Positions 25,815 through 38,866 of a DNA stretch of 64,000 nucleotides are shown here, one piece after another; the first letter of the stretch is position 1; every line of letters begins with the position of its first letter. The notes under the pieces were generated by a model, which saw only the letters and a program-made list of their open reading frames with translations, did no database searches and had not been told where the DNA came from. Both the position numbers and the translations under genes were made by a program. Where the stretch lies: positions 384,001 to 448,000 of the forward strand of contig OZ219871.1 of NCBI GenBank assembly GCA_964291495.2, given 5' to 3'. Source of the DNA: Dehalococcoidia bacterium (GTDB taxonomy: Bacteria > Chloroflexota > Dehalococcoidia > UBA2979).

Positions 25815-26786
25815 CTACGAGGCGACCAGCGCCTCCAGGTCGGCGAGCGTCACCGTGCCCGGCGCGGTGCCCTCGCGGGCGCAGCGGTTGGCGAGCAGGT
25901 TGAGCGCACGGTTGTAGGGTGTCTCGATGCCGTACTGCGCGCCCAGCAACGCCACCTCGCCGTTGATGTAGTCCGTCTCCGCCGTCCGCAGGCCGCGCTG
26001 GATGCCCTGCCAGAGCGAGCCGGCGAAGGGCGGGGCGCCCTCGATCTCCGCCCAGTCGTAGCGCGGCTGGCGGTTCAGGCGCAGCGCCTCCTCGGGCGTC
26101 GGCAGGTCGATGCCGGTGGCCTCGAGGACCGCGCGCGTCTCCGCGACGAGCCGCTCGCGGATCGCCGCCGTGTCGGCGCCGGGGCCGAAGACGCCGGCGA
26201 GAGCGGAGCCGACGTTGATGAGCAGCTTCTCGTGCTTCCAGCGCATCACGTCGGCCTCGGCCTGCCCGTCGAAGCCGCAGGCCGTGAGGTCCGCCGCGAG
26301 CTGCTCCGCGACGTCGTCGACGCCCTCGGGGCAGCGTCCCAGCTCGATCTCGCCGCCGCCCTGGGGTTCGTAGTTCGCGACGACGCCCGGTTCGAGCAGC
26401 ATCCCGGGGAAGCGCACGACCATCCCGTAGACGCGGCGGAAGCGGCGCAGCGCCTCGCGCTCCGTCGCCACCCCGTTCTGCGCGCAGACGACCGGTACGT
26501 TGTCGCCCGCCGCCGCGCGCAGGTCGTCGAGGGCGTCGAAGGCGTCCTGCGTTTTCACGGTGAGCAGCACAGCGTCGTCCTCGCGGAACTCGACCTCGTC
26601 GGGGCGCTCGACCGCGCCCAGCTCCGTGCGCACGGTCTCCAGTGGCGTGCGCAGCGTCAGCCCGTGCTCGCGAATCGCCGCGAGGTGCCGGCCGCGCGCG
26701 ATCAGCACCACCTCGCGGCCGATCCGCGAGAGCGCGGCGCCCATCACCCCGCCCGTCGCGCCCGCTCCGTAGACGACGTAGCGCAT
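25815..26786 (-). CDS. Ketopantoate reductase (PanE/ApbA) family protein
   Basis: YGAGATG, LIARGRH, CAQNG, WKHEKL..N, SLWQ, ETDYINGE. Confidence 0.85.
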   Translation of the reverse strand: MRYVVYGAGATGGVMGAALSRIGREVVLIARGRHLAAIREHGLTLRTPLETVRTELGAVERPDEVEFREDDAVLLTVKTQDAFDALDDLRAAAGDNVPVVCAQNGVATEREALRRFRRVYGMVVRFPGMLLEPGVVANYEPQGGGEIELGRCPEGVDDVAEQLAADLTACGFDGQAEADVMRWKHEKLLINVGSALAGVFGPGADTAAIRERLVAETRAVLEATGIDLPTPEEALRLNRQPRYDWAEIEGAPPFAGSLWQGIQRGLRTAETDYINGEVALLGAQYGIETPYNRALNLLANRCAREGTAPGTVTLADLEALVAS

Positions 26787-26792
26787 GGCGGC

Positions 26793-27626
26793 CTACCCGA
26801 CCTGCTCGGCGATGCGCGCCGCGGCGTCGAAGCCGGCGAGGATGTCGGCGTAGTGCTCCTCCAAGTCGGCGCGAGTGTGGGGGTGGCTGAAGATGTAGCG
26901 CTGGTCCTGCCGGATCGCCTCCAGCACGCGCGGCGCGATGTCCTCGGGGTAGACGGGGTTCGGCTGGCGCGGCACCGGCATTGGCCCGAGGGTGAACGGT
27001 CCGCCGAAGCGCTCCTGGCGATGCCGGCCGGCGTCCTCGATGTCCGTCAGCATTCCGCCGGGGCAGAACACCGAGCACGAGATCTCGCCGTCGTCGGCCT
27101 CCAGCTCGTGGCGCAGCGCGTTGGTGAGCGCGACGACGCCGTGCTTCACCGCCTGGTAAATGCCTCGCTGGTTGCGGCGCGCGATCAGCCCGCTCATCGA
27201 GGCGGTGTTGACGATGTGCGCCTCGCCGCCCTGCGCGCGCATGCGCGGCAGGAAGGCGTGGATGCCGTTGAGCGGCCCCCAGAGGTTCACCGCGAGCACC
27301 CACTCCCAGTCGTTGACCTCGGACTCCTCGATCGTCTTGTGCATCGAGACGCCGGCGTTGTTGAACAGCAGGTGCGCCGCGCCGAACTCGGCGTACGCGC
27401 GCTCGGCGAGCGCCTCGACCTGTGCGCGCTCGGCGACGTCCGTTTCGACGGCGATCGCCTGCCCGCCGCGATCGCGGATCGAGGCGGCGACGACCTCGGC
27501 CGGCTCGCCCTCGAGGTCGGCGATGACGACGCGCATGCCCTCGTTTGCGCACTCGTTGGCCAGCGCCCGTCCGACGCCGTGCGCGGCCCCGGTGACGACG
27601 GCGACCCGATCCCGAAACTCCCGCAT
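26793..27626 (-). CDS. SDR family oxidoreductase
   Basis: TGAAHGVG, NNAG, NTAS, YQAVK. Confidence 0.9.
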   Translation of the reverse strand: MREFRDRVAVVTGAAHGVGRALANECANEGMRVVIADLEGEPAEVVAASIRDRGGQAIAVETDVAERAQVEALAERAYAEFGAAHLLFNNAGVSMHKTIEESEVNDWEWVLAVNLWGPLNGIHAFLPRMRAQGGEAHIVNTASMSGLIARRNQRGIYQAVKHGVVALTNALRHELEADDGEISCSVFCPGGMLTDIEDAGRHRQERFGGPFTLGPMPVPRQPNPVYPEDIAPRVLEAIRQDQRYIFSHPHTRADLEEHYADILAGFDAAARIAEQVG

Positions 27627-27761: not shown

Positions 27762-28007
27762 ATGGTGATCAACGTGTACGAGGCAAAGACCCACCTGTCG
27801 AAGCTGCTCGACCGGGCGGCGGGCGGCGAAGAGATCGTGCTGGGCAAGTCCGGCAAGCCGCTGGCCCGGCTCGTGCCGTACGGGGAGCCTCGGCAACCCC
27901 GGAAGCCGGGCCGGCTGGCAGGCAAGATCTGGATCGCCCCCGACTTCGACGAGACACCCGAGGACATCATCGCCGCTTTCGAGGGCGACCTTGAGGATGA
28001 TGAGTGA
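27762..28007 (+). CDS. Phd/YefM family antitoxin
   Basis: NVYEAKTHLSKLL...GEEIV..GKPLARLVP. Confidence 0.92.
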   Translation: MVINVYEAKTHLSKLLDRAAGGEEIVLGKSGKPLARLVPYGEPRQPRKPGRLAGKIWIAPDFDETPEDIIAAFEGDLEDDE

Positions 28008-28375
28008 ACCTCCTGCTCGATACCCACGTCCTCCTGTGGTGGGGCGGGGAGCGGGATTTGTCGGGGGAGGCGCTCCGCGAGATCGCCAATCCGGACAACG
28101 TCGTCTACGTGAGCTCGGCGAGCATCTGGGAGATCAGCATCAAGCGGGCTCGGGGAAAGCTGCGCGTCGACGACGCCATCTTTGACGTCGGCGATGACGG
28201 CTTCGAGCCGCTGCCCATTACCCACGCCGACGCTCGCATGGCCGGGGCTCTGCCCGATCACCACCGCGATCCGTTCGATCGGATGCTGATCGCCCAGGCG
28301 CTCACACACGGCCTGGTGCTCGTCACCCGCGACTCGCGGATGGAGTCCTACGAAGCGCCCATCCTCCCCGCCTGA
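28004..28375 (+). CDS. vapC: VapC/PIN domain toxin
   Basis: LLLDTH, SIWEISIK, HRDPFDRMLIAQA, VTRD; GTGA overlap. Confidence 0.92.
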   Translation: MNLLLDTHVLLWWGGERDLSGEALREIANPDNVVYVSSASIWEISIKRARGKLRVDDAIFDVGDDGFEPLPITHADARMAGALPDHHRDPFDRMLIAQALTHGLVLVTRDSRMESYEAPILPA

Positions 28376-34782: not shown

Positions 34783-35649
34783 TCAGGCGTGAGGCTCGGG
34801 AGTCGCGACCGGCTCCCAGGCGTAGCCCGTCTCGACCCGCCGGACCCGCCCGAGCGTAGGGATGCCGAAGTGGCCGCCCGTCACGAGGGCGTCCCGCGCG
34901 ATCGCCAGCTCGGCGACCTTGCGGCGCGACCGCTCGGCCTCGGCGGGGTCGTGCTCGAGGAAGGTGCGCCACTCCGGCCGCACGACGTGGGCCGGGTGGT
35001 AGGCGACGTCGCCCGTGATCAGCAGGCGCTCGCCACCCGAGGAGAGGAGCAGCGAGCAGTGGCCGGGCGTGTGGCCGGGCGTCGGCACCATCGTCAGCGA
35101 GGGCGAGACTGTCGCCTCACCGTCGACGGGCTCGATGCGATCGGCCTCGTGCGCGGGCAGCACACAGCGCCGCACGAACTCGAGGCGCTGCGGGTCCGCC
35201 TCGGGGCCGAGCCAGTGGTCGAGCTCGGTCCGCGAGACATAGACCGTGGCGTTGGGGAAGGTGAGCGCGTTGTCGCGGTCCTCGTCGATCAGCCAGCCGA
35301 CGTGGTCCGGGTGCAAGTGCGTCTGCACGACGGCGTCGATTTCCTCGAGGGCGACGCCCAGCTCGGCGATGCGCTCGAGCAGCTCGCCGCAGCCCGGTGT
35401 GCCGAGCGTGCGCCCGAAGACGCCGTAGCCGGCGTCGACGAGCGTGGTGCGGCCGTCGCCGCGGATCAGGAAGCTGCCGAGGTTGAACGGGACCGGGTCG
35501 CTCGGGCTCGTGATCCCGACCTCGCGCATCCACTCGGCCGGGTCGGTGCCCGGGAGGTGCCGCTGGAAGTCTGTGACGTCGGGCGCGCTGTCGCTGATCG
35601 CGGCGACCTCGAGCGAGCCGATGCGAACGGTCTCGCTGAGCCTCGACAT
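34783..35649 (-). CDS. MBL-fold metallo-hydrolase
   Basis: THLHPDHVG, TPGHTPGH, GD, GGHF. Confidence 0.9.
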   Translation of the reverse strand: MSRLSETVRIGSLEVAAISDSAPDVTDFQRHLPGTDPAEWMREVGITSPSDPVPFNLGSFLIRGDGRTTLVDAGYGVFGRTLGTPGCGELLERIAELGVALEEIDAVVQTHLHPDHVGWLIDEDRDNALTFPNATVYVSRTELDHWLGPEADPQRLEFVRRCVLPAHEADRIEPVDGEATVSPSLTMVPTPGHTPGHCSLLLSSGGERLLITGDVAYHPAHVVRPEWRTFLEHDPAEAERSRRKVAELAIARDALVTGGHFGIPTLGRVRRVETGYAWEPVATPEPHA

Positions 35650-35660
35650 GGGCGGGCGCG

Positions 35661-36491
35661 CTACCCCAGCTCGGCGGCGATGCGCTCGCCCGCCTCGAAG
35701 TCGTCGAGGATCTGCTGGTAGTAGGCCTCGACGGTGGGACGGGTGTGCGGGTGGCTGAAGATGTAGAGCCGGTTCTCGCGCACTGCGGCGAGCACGCGCC
35801 TCGCGACGTCGTCCACGGTCATCGGGTTGGGTTCGCGGGGTACGGGCCGCGGCTGCTCCGGGTAGGGGCCGCCGAAGCGCTCCTGCCGGTTGCGGCCGGA
35901 GTCGCGCATGTTCGTGAGCATCCCGCCCGGGCACCAGCAGGAGACGACGATGCCCTCGGGAGCCAGCTCGTCGTGGAGCACGGCGCTTACGCCGACGAGG
36001 CCGTGCTTGATCGAGGTGTAGATGCCGTTCACGTTCGGCCGCGCCACGAGGCCGGAGACCGAGGCGGTGTTGATGATGTGCCCCGGCCCCTCCTGCTCGC
36101 GCATGCGCGGCACGAAGGCGTAGATGCCGTACATCGGCCCCATCAGGTCGACCGAGGTGAGCCAGTCCCAGTCCTCGTCGGGGGCCTCGGCGATCGGGTT
36201 GCGCTTGCTGACGCCGGCGTTGTTGAAGAGCAGGTTGACCTCGCCGAACTCCTCATAGGCGCGGGCCGCGAGGGCCTCGACGGCGGCGCGGTCGCTCACG
36301 TCGGTCTGCACGGCGATCGAGGCCGCCCCCGCCTCGCGCACCTCGGCAGCCACTTCCCCCGCTGGCCCGGCCTCGATATCGGCGATGACGACGCCACGCG
36401 CCCCCTGGCGCGCGCACTCGAGGGCAATGGCGCGGCCGACGCCGCTGCCCCCGCCGGTGATCACGGCGACGCTGCTAGCGATGTCGGTCAT
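35661..36491 (-). CDS. SDR family oxidoreductase (paralogue of 26793-27626)
   Basis: TGGGSGVG, NNAG, NTAS, YTSIK; shared CPGGMLT, QERFGGP, YIFSHPHTR. Confidence 0.9.
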   Translation of the reverse strand: MTDIASSVAVITGGGSGVGRAIALECARQGARGVVIADIEAGPAGEVAAEVREAGAASIAVQTDVSDRAAVEALAARAYEEFGEVNLLFNNAGVSKRNPIAEAPDEDWDWLTSVDLMGPMYGIYAFVPRMREQEGPGHIINTASVSGLVARPNVNGIYTSIKHGLVGVSAVLHDELAPEGIVVSCWCPGGMLTNMRDSGRNRQERFGGPYPEQPRPVPREPNPMTVDDVARRVLAAVRENRLYIFSHPHTRPTVEAYYQQILDDFEAGERIAAELG

Positions 36492-37858
36492 CCTGCGATC
36501 CCTTCCGCCACCGCCCCGGCGGCGATCTCCCGTCCGTCCCACTGATACTTACCCAAGTCGACGCGGCCGTCGTCGCTGACAAGCACGCCCTCCTCGCGGA
36601 GACGCTCGCCCTGATCGCCTCGCGAGTCCGGAGCGCTCAGCTGTCCCTCCGCGTTGATCACGCGGTGCCACGGCACGTCGGTGTCGTCGGGAAGGGCGAG
36701 CATGGCGCCTCCGACCGCCTGTGCCGCATCCGGCGATTCCAGGGCGTCGGCGATCCGCGCGTAGGTCACGACCTGGCCCTTAGGCACTCTCCGGACGTAC
36801 GCCCACACCCGCTCCCAGAAGTTCCCGCTCGGCGACGCGGGATTCCAGTGCTCCAGCGCAGTCTTGACGAACCGCACGAGCCCGGCTCGCCGCTCGCCCC
36901 ACTCCTCCGCGTTGTTGATCCAGAGGGCGTAATCCCTACCATTGTCTTCCGCGCGCCATCTGCACTGGACTGCCTCGGTCCTGAGCGAGTCGAGCGCGTC
37001 CGGGCTGTAGTACGACTCCGGGTACCACCTGACCACCAACCCCGCCTTCTCTTCGACCCAGAGGTGACAGAAGCGACGACGGCCGTTGCCCGCGCGCAAG
37101 CTATAGCTGATTCCCCAGGATCCGTGATTCTGCGCGGAGTCGGGGAGGGATGTCCGTAGCGCCTTGTCAACGTCCTCGAAGAGTTCGGCCAATCCTCGCT
37201 CGACCAGTCTCTCCTGGAGCTCAAGGCGGCGCTCGGCGGCGCTCCGGTAGGTCCGCCGCCCGGTGCGCGCGACCGCGTCCCGTTCGACTTCCACCTGACG
37301 GGCGAGCAATGTCTCGCCGCTGTGCTCGAAGCCGTGGAAGGTGAGCACCGAAATGTCGATGCCGCCCTTTGAGAGGAACCTCGCCATCCGTTCCGCTCGC
37401 TCGTCGGCACCGAGCCCCACAAGCGTGAGTCGCGGCGGCAGGAGGTCGTCGAGTTCGTTTTCGGCGAATCGATCCTGGTACCACTGCTCGAAGCCATCGA
37501 TCTTCTCGATGCCCTCGCTCCCGGAGTGCTCGGTGATGAACTCTGCCAGCTCCTTTGGCGTCATCTCGTCCAGCGCCGAGGCGTAGTCGATGCACTGCGT
37601 CACGGCTTCGCGGGTCAGCTTCTCCCGCTTCAACTCGAACACGACCAGCCGCCCGCCCTGATCGACGCCGAGCAGGTCCAGCGGGCCGCCTTCTGTTGGC
37701 GTCTGTCGCCCGACAAGATGAAGCCCGTTCTCCAGCATCTCGGGGCGGCTGACCAAGGTCGCTTCGAGAATGTCCTCGAGCTTCACGCCCGTCACGCTCT
37801 CAACGGCCTCGACTTCGTTGCCGTCGCGCAGGGCCCAGATCTTGAGTTCATCCGTCAT
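36488..37858 (-). CDS. NucS-like PD-(D/E)xK endonuclease fused to alkyltransferase-like (ATL) domain
   Basis: N-term LE..L...VGRQ..TEGGPLDLLGVD..G.LVVFELK...Q.IDY; C-term VP.GQVVTY..IA..L..P.AAQAVG.AM...VPWHRVIN..G...Q..RL..EG. Confidence 0.85.
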   Translation of the reverse strand: MTDELKIWALRDGNEVEAVESVTGVKLEDILEATLVSRPEMLENGLHLVGRQTPTEGGPLDLLGVDQGGRLVVFELKREKLTREAVTQCIDYASALDEMTPKELAEFITEHSGSEGIEKIDGFEQWYQDRFAENELDDLLPPRLTLVGLGADERAERMARFLSKGGIDISVLTFHGFEHSGETLLARQVEVERDAVARTGRRTYRSAAERRLELQERLVERGLAELFEDVDKALRTSLPDSAQNHGSWGISYSLRAGNGRRRFCHLWVEEKAGLVVRWYPESYYSPDALDSLRTEAVQCRWRAEDNGRDYALWINNAEEWGERRAGLVRFVKTALEHWNPASPSGNFWERVWAYVRRVPKGQVVTYARIADALESPDAAQAVGGAMLALPDDTDVPWHRVINAEGQLSAPDSRGDQGERLREEGVLVSDDGRVDLGKYQWDGREIAAGAVAEGIAG

Positions 37859-37870
37859 CTCTTCGCCCCA

Positions 37871-38866
37871 TCACTTGCCGGACAGCGCCAGACGCTCAAC
37901 CTCGGCGACGAACTCGTCGACGCCGATCGAGCCGGGCTCGATGCCGTTGCGGACGCAGTGGTTGGCTGCCTGCTGGAGGGCGCGGTTCCACGGCGTGGGG
38001 ACGCCGTGGAGCGCGCCGATCAATACGATCTCGCCGTTGACGTAGTCCGTCTCCACGCTGCGGTTGCCCCGTTGCACTCCCTGCCAGACAGAGCTGGTGA
38101 ACTCGCCGTGGCCGGGGATCTCGCCCCACTCGAAGCCGGGCGCACGCCCGGCCGCCGCCGACTCCTCGCGTGAGGCGTAGTCGATGCCTGCGGCGTCGAA
38201 GACCGCCTCCGTCTCCGCCTCGAGGCGCGCGCGCAGCGCGGCGGTGTCCGCGCCGGGGCCGAAGACGGCGGGGAAGGCGGCTCCGAGGTTGCGGATCAGC
38301 TTGTGGTACTTCCAGCGCATCACCTGCGCCTCGACCTCGCCGCGGAAGCCGGCGGCTGTCAGGTCGGCGGCGATGGAGCGCACGAGGTTGTCGGCGCCCT
38401 CGGGGTAGCGGCCCATGACCAGCGTGCCGCCGCCGCTCTTGTCGTAGCTGAGCACCAGGCCGGGCTCGACGAAGGAGGTGGCGACGAGCACCTCGACGGC
38501 GTAGACGCGCTCGAAGCGGCGCAGCGCCATGCGCTCGTTCTCGATGCCGTTCTGGGTGCAGACCACGGGCAGGTCGGCCCCGCCGGCCAGGCGCAGCTCG
38601 TCGAGGGCGTCCGTGCAGTCCTGCGATCGCATCGTGAGGAAGACGACGTCGTCCTCCCAGAAGTCGACCTCATGCGGGCTGGCGACGGCGGGGATGCGCA
38701 GCTCGAGCGTGTCGGCGGGCGTCTTGACCGTGAGCCCGCGCTTGCGGATGGCGTCGAGGTGCGGGCCGCGCGCGATCAGGACCACCTCGCGACCGCTGGC
38801 GAAGAGCCGCGCGCCGATGGTGCAGCCGATGCCGCCGGCGCCGTAGATCACGTAGCGGTTGGGCAT
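37871..38866 (-). CDS. Ketopantoate reductase family protein (paralogue of 25815-26786)
   Basis: YGAGGIG, CTQNG, WKYHKL, VFGPGADTAA, ETDYVNGE. Confidence 0.85.
   Translation of the reverse strand: MPNRYVIYGAGGIGCTIGARLFASGREVVLIARGPHLDAIRKRGLTVKTPADTLELRIPAVASPHEVDFWEDDVVFLTMRSQDCTDALDELRLAGGADLPVVCTQNGIENERMALRRFERVYAVEVLVATSFVEPGLVLSYDKSGGGTLVMGRYPEGADNLVRSIAADLTAAGFRGEVEAQVMRWKYHKLIRNLGAAFPAVFGPGADTAALRARLEAETEAVFDAAGIDYASREESAAAGRAPGFEWGEIPGHGEFTSSVWQGVQRGNRSVETDYVNGEIVLIGALHGVPTPWNRALQQAANHCVRNGIEPGSIGVDEFVAEVERLALSGK

Follow-up and report, generated by a model that had tools for sequence, protein, structure and literature searches.

Among the genes of a 64,000-nucleotide stretch of Dehalococcoidia bacterium DNA (GenBank assembly GCA_964291495.2, contig OZ219871.1, positions 384,001 to 448,000; hereafter called the window) is one whose 456-aa product, P0001, joins a NucS-type nuclease module, a family-specific middle domain, and an alkyltransferase-like (ATL) domain in a single polypeptide. 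The ATL domain carries Gln at the position of the Arg finger, and this Gln is, by alignment, a hallmark of the clade of fused proteins to which P0001 belongs. With confidence that we would call about even, we favor the reading that P0001 is a Type IV-like modification-dependent nuclease whose ATL domain would serve as a base-flipping reader. The features of the gene on which this reading draws are as follows, with residues numbered as in P0001.

36488..37858, minus strand: whole gene of the nuclease-ATL fusion P0001, ATG start, 456 aa, stop included (from the list of open reading frames and the translation)
37274..37858, minus strand: NucS-type PD-(D/E)xK module with predicted dimer interface, residues 1-195 (Pfam NucS_C, PDC-S11, 2vld/5gke)
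37628..37678, minus strand: catalytic core D61...E75-L-K77 (LDLLGVD...VVFELK; from conservation and alignment with the D...ExK of P. abyssi NucS)
36839..37246, minus strand: family-specific middle domain, residues 205-340, about 135 aa (AlphaFold2 domain model, predicted local distance difference test [pLDDT] 90)
36533..36823, minus strand: alkyltransferase-like (MGMT-fold) domain, residues 346-442 (PF01035; 2kif, 3gva)
36719..36721, minus strand: Gln380 at the Arg-finger position (AAQAVG), aligned to Atl1 Arg39
36659..36673, minus strand: PWHRV motif, residues 396-400, with Trp397 for the alkyl-acceptor Cys (from the translation and the Atl1 alignment)

Three domains in one open reading frame

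An initial annotation of this DNA had described a single 456-aa open reading frame (ORF) that looks less GC-rich than its neighbors, and both observations held. The fusion gene is one uninterrupted 456-codon frame without an internal stop, and an independent contig from a public sequencing run spans positions 36444-37950 with 0 differences and 0 indels relative to the window, so there is no stop or frameshift between the domains. Furthermore, the fusion is not an assembly artifact, because 43 of the 120 best clusters from a 5.8-billion-protein collection carry both PF01939 and PF01035 in one protein of 430-456 aa, an outcome that also confirms the recurrence of the architecture in other proteins. 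The G+C content across the gene is 0.65-0.66 versus 0.69-0.73 alongside (500-nt windows), and third-position G+C is 0.83 versus 0.92-0.97 in the neighboring genes. The AlphaFold2 (AF2) model of P0001, made with 82 relatives in the alignment, has a mean pLDDT of 85.

The proposed placement of a nuclease at the N terminus and an ATL domain at the C terminus was likewise borne out, in that the NucS/DUF91 and DNA_binding_1 profiles both match above their curated Pfam cut-offs and solved structures match by sequence and by Foldseek. NucS_C (PF01939) covers residues 30-97 with an E-value of 1.4e-8, and P. abyssi NucS (2vld) aligns with residues 33-120 at 3.3e-8 in a sequence search of solved structures. 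Foldseek of the AF2 model matches the nuclease module to NucS 2vld and EndoMS 5gke. Like NucS/EndoMS, P0001 has a NucS_C-family PD-(D/E)xK domain with the D...ExK...Q...Y pattern; D61, E75, Q88, D91, and Y92 are invariant among the 82 relatives, and K77 is present in at least 90% of them. The label "NucS-like" given by the initial annotation thus suits the nuclease module but not the protein, which is not NucS. The NCBIfam NucS equivalogs were missed (NF003270 at 54.3 bits versus 216, NF002876 at 29.5 versus 252) with the nuclease part alone aligning, and a Pfam scan found no N-terminal NucS domain in P0001. Unlike NucS/EndoMS, the protein carries its nuclease at the N terminus, and its genome has MutS.

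The nuclease module also matches a family of candidate defense proteins. The PADLOC PDC-S11 model PDLC04916 aligns with residues 1-200 over profile positions 1-193 of 358 (E-value 7.4e-34), and four more PDC-S11 models match P0001, each with an E-value of 2.7e-7 or lower. According to a September 2026 preprint (bioRxiv 10.64898/2026.09.05.749240), PDC-S11 has been renamed "Madara" and is a modification-dependent anti-phage nuclease with a NucS-like PD-(D/E)xK N terminus and an "EVE-like" C terminus. The same preprint describes an E. coli ECOR34 Madara that restricts wild-type T4, with glucosylated hydroxymethylcytosine (glucosyl-hmC), and spares T4(C), reports that a D63A mutation abolishes this defense, and shows an AlphaFold 3 (AF3) dimer model (bioRxiv 10.64898/2026.09.05.749240). 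P0001 is similar to Madara in being a single protein with a NucS-like PD-(D/E)xK module of about 195 residues, an Asp near positions 61-63, a putative C-terminal sensor, and a predicted dimer. It differs in that a middle domain and an ATL domain stand where Madara has its "EVE-like"/DUF4268 domain, the E. coli protein being compared here by its description.

A homodimer model of P0001 scored 0.42, versus 0.01 for the best control, and in a benchmark this mark was attained by 20 of 30 solved homo-pairs and by 1 of 23 single chains. The homodimer runs share at least 97% of their contacts, the partner pLDDT is at least 76, and the predicted symmetric interface is built from helices 83-98 and 154-167 (interface residues 56-57, 83-98, 141, and 154-167). 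Because the NucS dimer is known to form through its N-terminal domain, which is absent in P0001, the score is unlikely to be due to likeness to NucS complexes. As modeled, the nuclease module probably pairs into a homodimer.

At the other end of P0001, PF01035 (DNA_binding_1) matches residues 346-425 with an E-value of 1.5e-22 and 79.7 bits against a cut-off of 27. The top solved matches by sequence are V. parahaemolyticus vpAtl (2kif, 4e-16) and S. pombe Atl1 (3gva, 8.6e-14), and the same two structures head the Foldseek list with template modeling (TM) scores of 0.80-0.85 (target-normalized). Superposition of the modeled ATL fold on chain 3gx4, from the Atl1-DNA complex, gave a TM score of 0.80 and a root-mean-square deviation (rmsd) of 2.1 Å. 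ATL proteins bind O6-alkylguanine and hand it to nucleotide excision repair through UvrA/UvrC, and hand-over of the lesion without repair is known for Atl1, YbaZ, and TTHA1564, according to two papers (PMC7835731; PMC7216122). The P0001 domain shares with Atl1, vpAtl, YbaZ, and TTHA1564 the MGMT C-terminal fold with its helix-turn-helix, the PWHRV motif, and the Tyr, at 37-39% identity over about 100 aligned columns. However, those proteins are standalone, about 110 aa long, recruit excision repair, and have an Arg finger, whereas the domain of P0001 is the C terminus of a nuclease and has Gln. It also differs from Ogt, Ada, and MGMT, as their active-site Cys of PCHR is Trp397 in P0001.

The replacement of Arg by Gln had been noticed in the initial annotation along with the PWHRV motif, and both were confirmed by alignment with Atl1, which pairs Trp397 with Trp56, Gln380 with Arg39, and Tyr366 with Tyr25. 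The residue that faces Atl1 Arg69 in P0001 is Pro. In Atl1, Arg39 is the Arg finger, which occupies the space vacated when the base is flipped, Tyr25 promotes flipping, and Arg69 has a role as well. Among the 43 fused proteins, the finger position holds Gln in 41, Leu in 1, Pro in 1, and Arg in 0, whereas all 120 of the nearest standalone MGMT-family proteins have Arg (these are at most 53% identical to the ATL region). The flipping Tyr is retained in 43 of the 43 fused proteins, and their acceptor motif reads PWHR in 31, PWWR in 11, and PWYR in 1. (The alignment of fused proteins holds 42 of the 43, the N-terminally truncated P0008 having been left out.) Because the change is mostly to one residue, rather than the random mixture expected of decay, it suggests that the finger has been retuned. 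Regardless, the term ATL applies to P0001 with regard to the MGMT fold, PWHRV, and Tyr but not the Arg finger, a defining ATL feature. P0001 does not count as a canonical PDC-S11, NucS, or ATL protein, since it lacks DUF4268, scores below the NucS equivalog cut-offs, and has an ATL domain that is fused and has no Arg finger.

The domain that lies between these two parts could not be assigned to a family by the initial annotation, and our scans of Pfam, PADLOC, PDB folds, and the ESM Atlas gave no assignment either. Its model consists of two helices, a four-stranded sheet, a helix, two strands, and a long helix. Foldseek against the PDB found nothing at an E-value of 0.001 or lower (the best was 0.2), Pfam and PADLOC returned no match, and the ESM Atlas had nothing above 0.82. 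We rejected an identification with DUF419/YjbR, as Foldseek gave 2a1v a probability of just 0.41 and hhalign against a YjbR-MGMT fusion gave 0.07. Also rejected was a resemblance to the N-domain of alkylguanine transferases (AGTs), which was suspected when full-length AGTs aligned with about 185 columns of the whole model and was not confirmed by Foldseek at the domain level. As a separate observation, two 213-aa proteins, P0306 and P0332, join YjbR (PF04237) to an active-type MGMT domain with PCHRV and an Arg finger. The middle domain itself occurs in most relatives of about 350 aa. It behaves as an independent module, because the cluster representatives P0126, P0130, and P0139 (455-500 aa) have two of them in tandem in place of the ATL domain.

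The ratios of nonsynonymous to synonymous substitution rates (dN/dS; Nei-Gojobori, 7 pairs with dS < 0.6 and at least 62% identity) are 0.08-0.27 for the nuclease module, a range that leaves out pairs involving locus L041, 0.29-0.54 for the middle domain, and 0.23-0.45 for the ATL domain. All three domains are under purifying selection, and the middle domain evolves fastest.

Breadth of the family and exchange of C termini

The fused proteins are surrounded by a larger group of relatives that lack the ATL domain. The other 77 of the 120 best clusters have the nuclease domain alone and are mostly about 340-375 aa long. The few fused clusters that carry source names come from metagenome-assembled genomes (MAGs) labeled Chloroflexi/Chloroflexota, Dehalococcoidia, Acidobacteria, and Gammaproteobacteria. 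When 1.84 billion cluster representatives were searched with a profile, 252 clusters matched at an E-value of 1e-30 or lower. The best 150 of these 252 are mostly about 350 aa long, with a profile match that extends through the middle domain, and the ATL fusion is present in 1 of these 150 best 50%-identity representatives (P0015), while three others of the 150 are the ones with the doubled middle domain. In a search by sequence words against proteins of comparable length, the ATL region recovered the same family only (12 of 391 candidates). The ATL fusion is, judging from these searches, one small branch of a large family composed of the nuclease plus the middle domain.

Among 401 evenly sampled genomes of the class, the base family is present in 35 at an E-value of 1e-40 or lower, and full-length fused matches are present in four (G000, which is the window's genome, G008, G201 with two copies, and G235). 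An additional copy in G335 is broken and contains stops. The two copies in G201, on two contigs of one MAG (L034 and L036), are 90% identical and lie in two non-syntenic places.

The C-terminal forms found on the shared cutter are a middle domain, a doubled middle domain, a middle domain with ATL, and DUF4268, and these forms show that the family exchanges its C-terminal domains while the cutter stays constant. Restriction enzymes that couple a sensor to a nuclease would be expected to show such swapping. Also relevant here is a second PDC-S11 subfamily. Its proteins are about 30% identical to P0001 and about 450-475 aa long, have PDLC04909 as their best model (3e-47), and in nine genus-mates end in an MGMT-fold domain (PF01035 E-values of 1e-6 to 8e-8). 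That domain is degenerate, with the pattern ...SSA[QR]AV.GHI...[GA][YH]RVL, no PW motif, R or Q at the finger, and extra Cys residues. As a consequence, the pairing of a cutter with an MGMT fold is seen in two subfamilies. The second one occupies its own conserved site, is not found in the window's genome, and is hosted by G001, G010-G013, G016, and G018, with matches also in G002 and G017. Its genes are located as follows.

L021:9602-10969, minus strand: second-subfamily gene
L022:9401-10750, minus strand: second-subfamily gene
L025:8777-10129: second-subfamily gene
L023, L024, L026, L027: second-subfamily genes

About 4 kb from the second-subfamily gene of G016, at L025:13893-15323 on the minus strand, lies a gene for a 476-aa protein with a C-terminal NucS_C match (E-value 3e-13). 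The same protein has a weak AlwI-like N-terminal region and PDC-S02 matches.

Insertion site and genomic context

The gene lies between two metabolic genes in a site that is empty in six genus-mates.

36522..37892, minus strand: inserted cassette of about 1.37 kb, consisting of a new reductase tail and stop, a 9-nt spacer, and the nuclease-ATL ORF; ends within about 6 nt either way
36491..36532, minus strand: captured reductase tail, residues 443-456, REIAAGAVAEGIAG, ending in the ATGA overlap (from the empty-site comparison)
37871..38860, minus strand: ketopantoate-reductase-like gene (ApbA family), with the insertion in its 3' end (ORF; ApbA and ApbA_C in the neighbor tallies)
35661..36491, minus strand: short-chain dehydrogenase (SDR), downstream, whose ATG at 36489-36491 overlaps the fusion stop (ORF; adh_short in the tallies)

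The suspicion raised in the initial annotation that the gene was acquired was shown directly to be correct, both by six genus-mates in which the reductase and SDR genes are adjacent and by an empty-site contig in the same sequencing run. Close orthologs are present in 5 of 19 genus genomes (G000, G002, G008, G017, and G009, the last unfused and 355 aa long). Both flanks are readable at nine loci, of which three are filled (G000, G009, and G017) and six are empty, with the reductase directly adjoining the SDR (G001, G004, G010, G011, G012, and G014). Between genus-mates, the fusion gene is 72-79% identical, versus 86-97% for the flanks (86-95% for the reductase and 88-97% for the SDR). The low-depth contig from the run that also yielded the filled allele joins position 36521 to 37893, with 6 other letters standing in place of the 1371 nt that it skips, and is the empty allele of a related strain. 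No terminal direct or inverted repeats were found at the cassette ends.

At the empty sites the reductase ends in ...VEQEIAGTVAEGIAR followed by its stop, which overlaps the SDR start in ATGA. Because of this ending, the last 14 residues of P0001, REIAAGAVAEGIAG, can be recognized as the old reductase tail, read through in frame, and they have an AF2 pLDDT below 50 over residues 446-456. The initial annotation had correctly noted the ATGA overlap with the SDR start but had taken it as a sign of acquisition, which it is not. The overlap belongs to the older reductase-SDR junction, since the empty sites already have it.

The ortholog in G009 (L018/L043:10001-11068) has the same insertion and is still open, but the whole ATL domain has been deleted. 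The deletion was in frame, because residues on both sides are kept (...WNPA|WNEREIAG...), and the captured reductase tail is also retained, which makes this form a natural ATL-less control.

Two other observations concern genes related to those at the insertion site. Outside the window, at G000:C5:1460501-1460635 (L004), a decayed fragment of a NucS/PDC-S11-type nuclease (GGPLDLLAIDEQDRWVVIELKR...) lies in a 147-codon open stretch and shares 60% identity with P0001 over residues 51-95. Within the window, a reductase-like paralog stands beside another SDR-like gene in reversed order (26001-26786 and 26793-27626, both on the minus strand). This paralog is 54% identical to the 37871-38860 gene and lies about 10 kb away from it. 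Genus-mates have kept the paralog too, at a distance of about 10-14 kb from their insertion site.

A context survey covered 20 distinct loci, with 112 flanking ORFs each scanned for families. The ORF caller was a codon-position G+C heuristic that misses genes (e.g., an MBL-fold gene at 34783-35934) and over-extends starts, and the tallies are therefore approximate. The check for a defense-island context, which the initial annotation had proposed, gave a mixed picture. One of the 20 loci adjoins a Type I restriction-modification (R-M) system and four more lie near recombinases, insertion sequences (IS), or Rad52, but the window and the loci syntenic with it are metabolic. Among the non-syntenic loci, mobile or defense neighbors are present in five of six, with L036 being uninformative. 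At L047 the order is reverse transcriptase, DDE transposase, nuclease gene, HsdM, KAP NTPase, HsdS, and HsdR, the Hsd genes forming the Type I R-M system. Large serine recombinases lie near the gene at L035, L039, and L041, and a Rad52/22 gene and an IS110 fragment are neighbors at L034. The gene behaves as a mobile accessory gene.

In Tepidiformaceae, the nuclease gene occupies a site between an acyl-CoA dehydrogenase gene and a native standalone ATL gene. The native ATL is 109-114 aa long with an Arg finger and PWWRV, and its third-position G+C is 0.89-0.98, versus 0.71-0.75 for the nuclease gene. The forms found at this site are listed here.

L032, L033, L037, L038: fused form
L042: unfused form
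L045: frameshifted form
L040: degraded form
L044:9938-11104: DUF4268-bearing form
L032:5728-6069, L033:11327-11671, L038:5795-6139, L042:11080-11421, L040:11360-11692, L045:11035-11364: native standalone ATLs, directly downstream of the nuclease gene

The L044 protein combines the same nuclease module with DUF4268 and fits PDLC04913 at positions 30-368 of 375. Also at this site, the gene at L046:9194-10594 joins a ParB-like N-terminal region to a truncated nuclease module. Taken as alleles, these forms suggest that the Tepidiformaceae site is a hot spot where the sensor differs from allele to allele. A quick tree (92 rows, 99 columns, with support from the Shimodaira-Hasegawa-like approximate likelihood ratio test [SH-aLRT] only) lent no support to the idea that the fused ATL domain came from the adjacent native one. 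In the same tree, all standalone ATLs, including the native one, fall on one side of a branch with a support of 96, and the fused domains form an unresolved base.

A possible modification-dependent nuclease and its alternatives

If P0001 is a Type IV-like modification-dependent nuclease, then its NucS-type module (D61, E75, K77) would be the cutter, probably as a homodimer. The ATL domain, with its Tyr and PW(H/W/Y)R pocket kept, would be the base-flipping reader, as SRA-like domains are in MspJI or PvuRts1I, and perhaps the two reader arms of the dimeric cutter, namely the middle domain and the ATL domain, choose the substrate together. The enzyme might bind DNA with an O6-alkylguanine-like or otherwise modified purine and cut nearby. 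Its most likely role, as a single-protein nuclease of the PDC-S11 ("Madara") lineage that is accessory and moves horizontally, would be to restrict invading DNA in the manner of a Type IV enzyme. For P0001, we infer only that it cleaves DNA, what it binds, and that it serves in defense. The restriction reading gains support because the nuclease module matches PDC-S11 and because one homolog adjoins a Type I R-M system. In addition, the fusion gene fills no missing repair pathway, as the genome encodes MutS and UvrA at other places, together with a canonical Ogt that has both PCHRV and the Arg finger.

Several points weigh against this reading. DUF4268, the canonical C-terminal domain of PDC-S11, has no match in P0001 by Pfam or PADLOC, the PADLOC match is confined to the nuclease module, and the middle domain alone matches 0 PADLOC families. 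Conservation of the nuclease module is higher than is usual for a defense gene. The window and 13 further loci of the 20 have metabolic neighbors in a fixed order (acyl-CoA dehydrogenase, SDR, AIM24, and PdxT-like), metabolic families dominate the tallies for the 112 flanking ORFs, PADLOC matches are few across these ORFs, and the window is not a defense island. Copies covering at least 80% of the query were absent from 72,556 plasmid and 50,697 phage records. With its Arg finger gone, the ATL domain might flip bases less well, and retuning need not be involved. Finally, the ATL ligands known to us are alkylation lesions only, and we know of no natural phage modification at O6 of guanine.

It is also reasonable to speculate, though we think it unlikely, that the Gln-type ATL reads not damage but a natural phage purine modification, such as 2-aminoadenine (Z) or an O6-/N2-substituted or hypermodified guanine. 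If the orphan base left opposite the flipped purine were a different one, Gln would fit where Arg had been, and Atl1 is reported to tolerate 2,6-diaminopurine. If this speculation is true, no earlier Type IV restriction enzymes would have been directed at purines, and the MGMT fold would for the first time have a use outside repair.

The arrangement has precedents in part. Type IV enzymes such as MspJI and PvuRts1I/AbaSI combine a PD-(D/E)xK cutter and a base-flipping reader in one polypeptide and have no methyltransferase partner. Their readers are SRA-like and recognize modified cytosines, whereas the putative reader of P0001 has the MGMT fold, whose relatives read O6-alkylguanine. A Ferroplasma acidarmanus protein is reported to fuse an MGMT fold with its active-site Cys to endonuclease V (AGT-EndoV) and to be a bifunctional repair enzyme. 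Unlike that protein, P0001 has Trp for the Cys and a NucS-type nuclease of a family of defense candidates. In our literature search, which misses most subscription journals, no restriction or defense nuclease was described as having an ATL or MGMT-fold domain, and neither NucS and alkyltransferase-like nor PF01035 and PF01939 were paired in any paper. Among papers on alkyltransferase-like proteins that touch on restriction endonucleases or bacteriophage, none concerns defense by title or abstract.

To our knowledge, the bases recognized by modification-dependent nucleases that have been described to date are modified cytosines or adenines, and the readers are of the SRA, EVE/PUA, YTH-like, or winged-helix type. 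A reader with the MGMT fold would thus form a new class, directed at purines, and would show a DNA-repair sensor recruited into a candidate immunity nuclease. MspJI and AbaSI serve as mapping tools for cytosine marks, and an enzyme that cut beside O6-alkylguanine would be a tool for mapping alkylation damage. The clade-wide change from Arg to Gln offers a clean handle on the part of the finger in base flipping, and the locus shows clearly, in nature, how a gene without a promoter can settle in an operon when it takes over the end of a host gene.

The first alternative to be weighed is self-contained alkylation repair, in which the ATL domain would find O6-alkylguanine in the cell's own DNA, the nuclease would nick beside it, and excision would follow without hand-over to UvrABC. 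We regard this as somewhat unlikely but still a serious rival. Known ATLs do pass O6-alkylguanine to nucleotide excision repair, according to the papers cited above (PMC7835731; PMC7216122), and the NucS fold is that of a repair nuclease. The Tepidiformaceae gene lies directly upstream of the native ATL (L032, L033, L038, L040, L042, and L045; unfused in L042), the metabolic gene order around the nuclease gene is conserved, and purifying selection on the nuclease module is strong. However, the native ATL is not next to the fused domains in the quick tree, and the adjacency may be historical. The gene is also patchy and dispensable, being present in 5 of 19 genus genomes and, as a full-length fusion, in 4 of 401 class genomes, and Ogt, UvrA, and MutS are already in the window's genome. 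The Arg finger that is present in 120 of 120 of the nearest standalone ATLs is gone from the fused domain, and G009 deleted the ATL domain in frame with the rest of the gene left open. Moreover, the nuclease module belongs to a candidate defense family, and some copies adjoin Type I R-M genes, transposases, or recombinases.

Perhaps the ATL domain has lost its ability to read lesions and now either clamps DNA in general or is an appendage for autoinhibition or regulation, with any specificity residing in the middle domain, as it would in the relatives of about 350 aa that lack ATL. We judge this improbable, although it would account for the replacement of the Arg finger in 43 of 43 fused proteins, for Pro at the position of Atl1 Arg69, and for the observation that most of the family works without an ATL domain (1 of the 150 best representatives is fused). 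The loss of the domain in G009 and the more degenerate, PW-less MGMT-like domain of the second subfamily point in the same direction. What speaks for a working reader is that PW[HWY]R and the flipping Tyr are intact in 43 of 43, that the ATL dN/dS of 0.23-0.45 is no looser than that of the middle domain, and that the model superposes on 3gx4 (TM 0.80, rmsd 2.1 Å). The predominance of one replacement, Gln in 41 of 43, also suggests retuning.

Finally, a decaying passenger, that is, a functionless insertion remnant open by chance, might be expected to show the accidental read-through of 14 C-terminal residues into an old gene tail and to have broken relatives such as L045 (frameshift), G335 (stops), and the fragment elsewhere in the window's genome, but it is hardly credible given a frame open for 456 codons, dN/dS far under 1 in every domain, invariant catalytic residues among 82 relatives, and 43 fused clusters with source names from several phyla.

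One minor feature of the window lies apart from these subjects. Two overlapping small ORFs on the plus strand, at 27762-28007 (MVINVYEAKTHLSKLL...) and 28004-28375 (VNLLLDTHVLLWW...), look by eye like an antitoxin and a PIN toxin.

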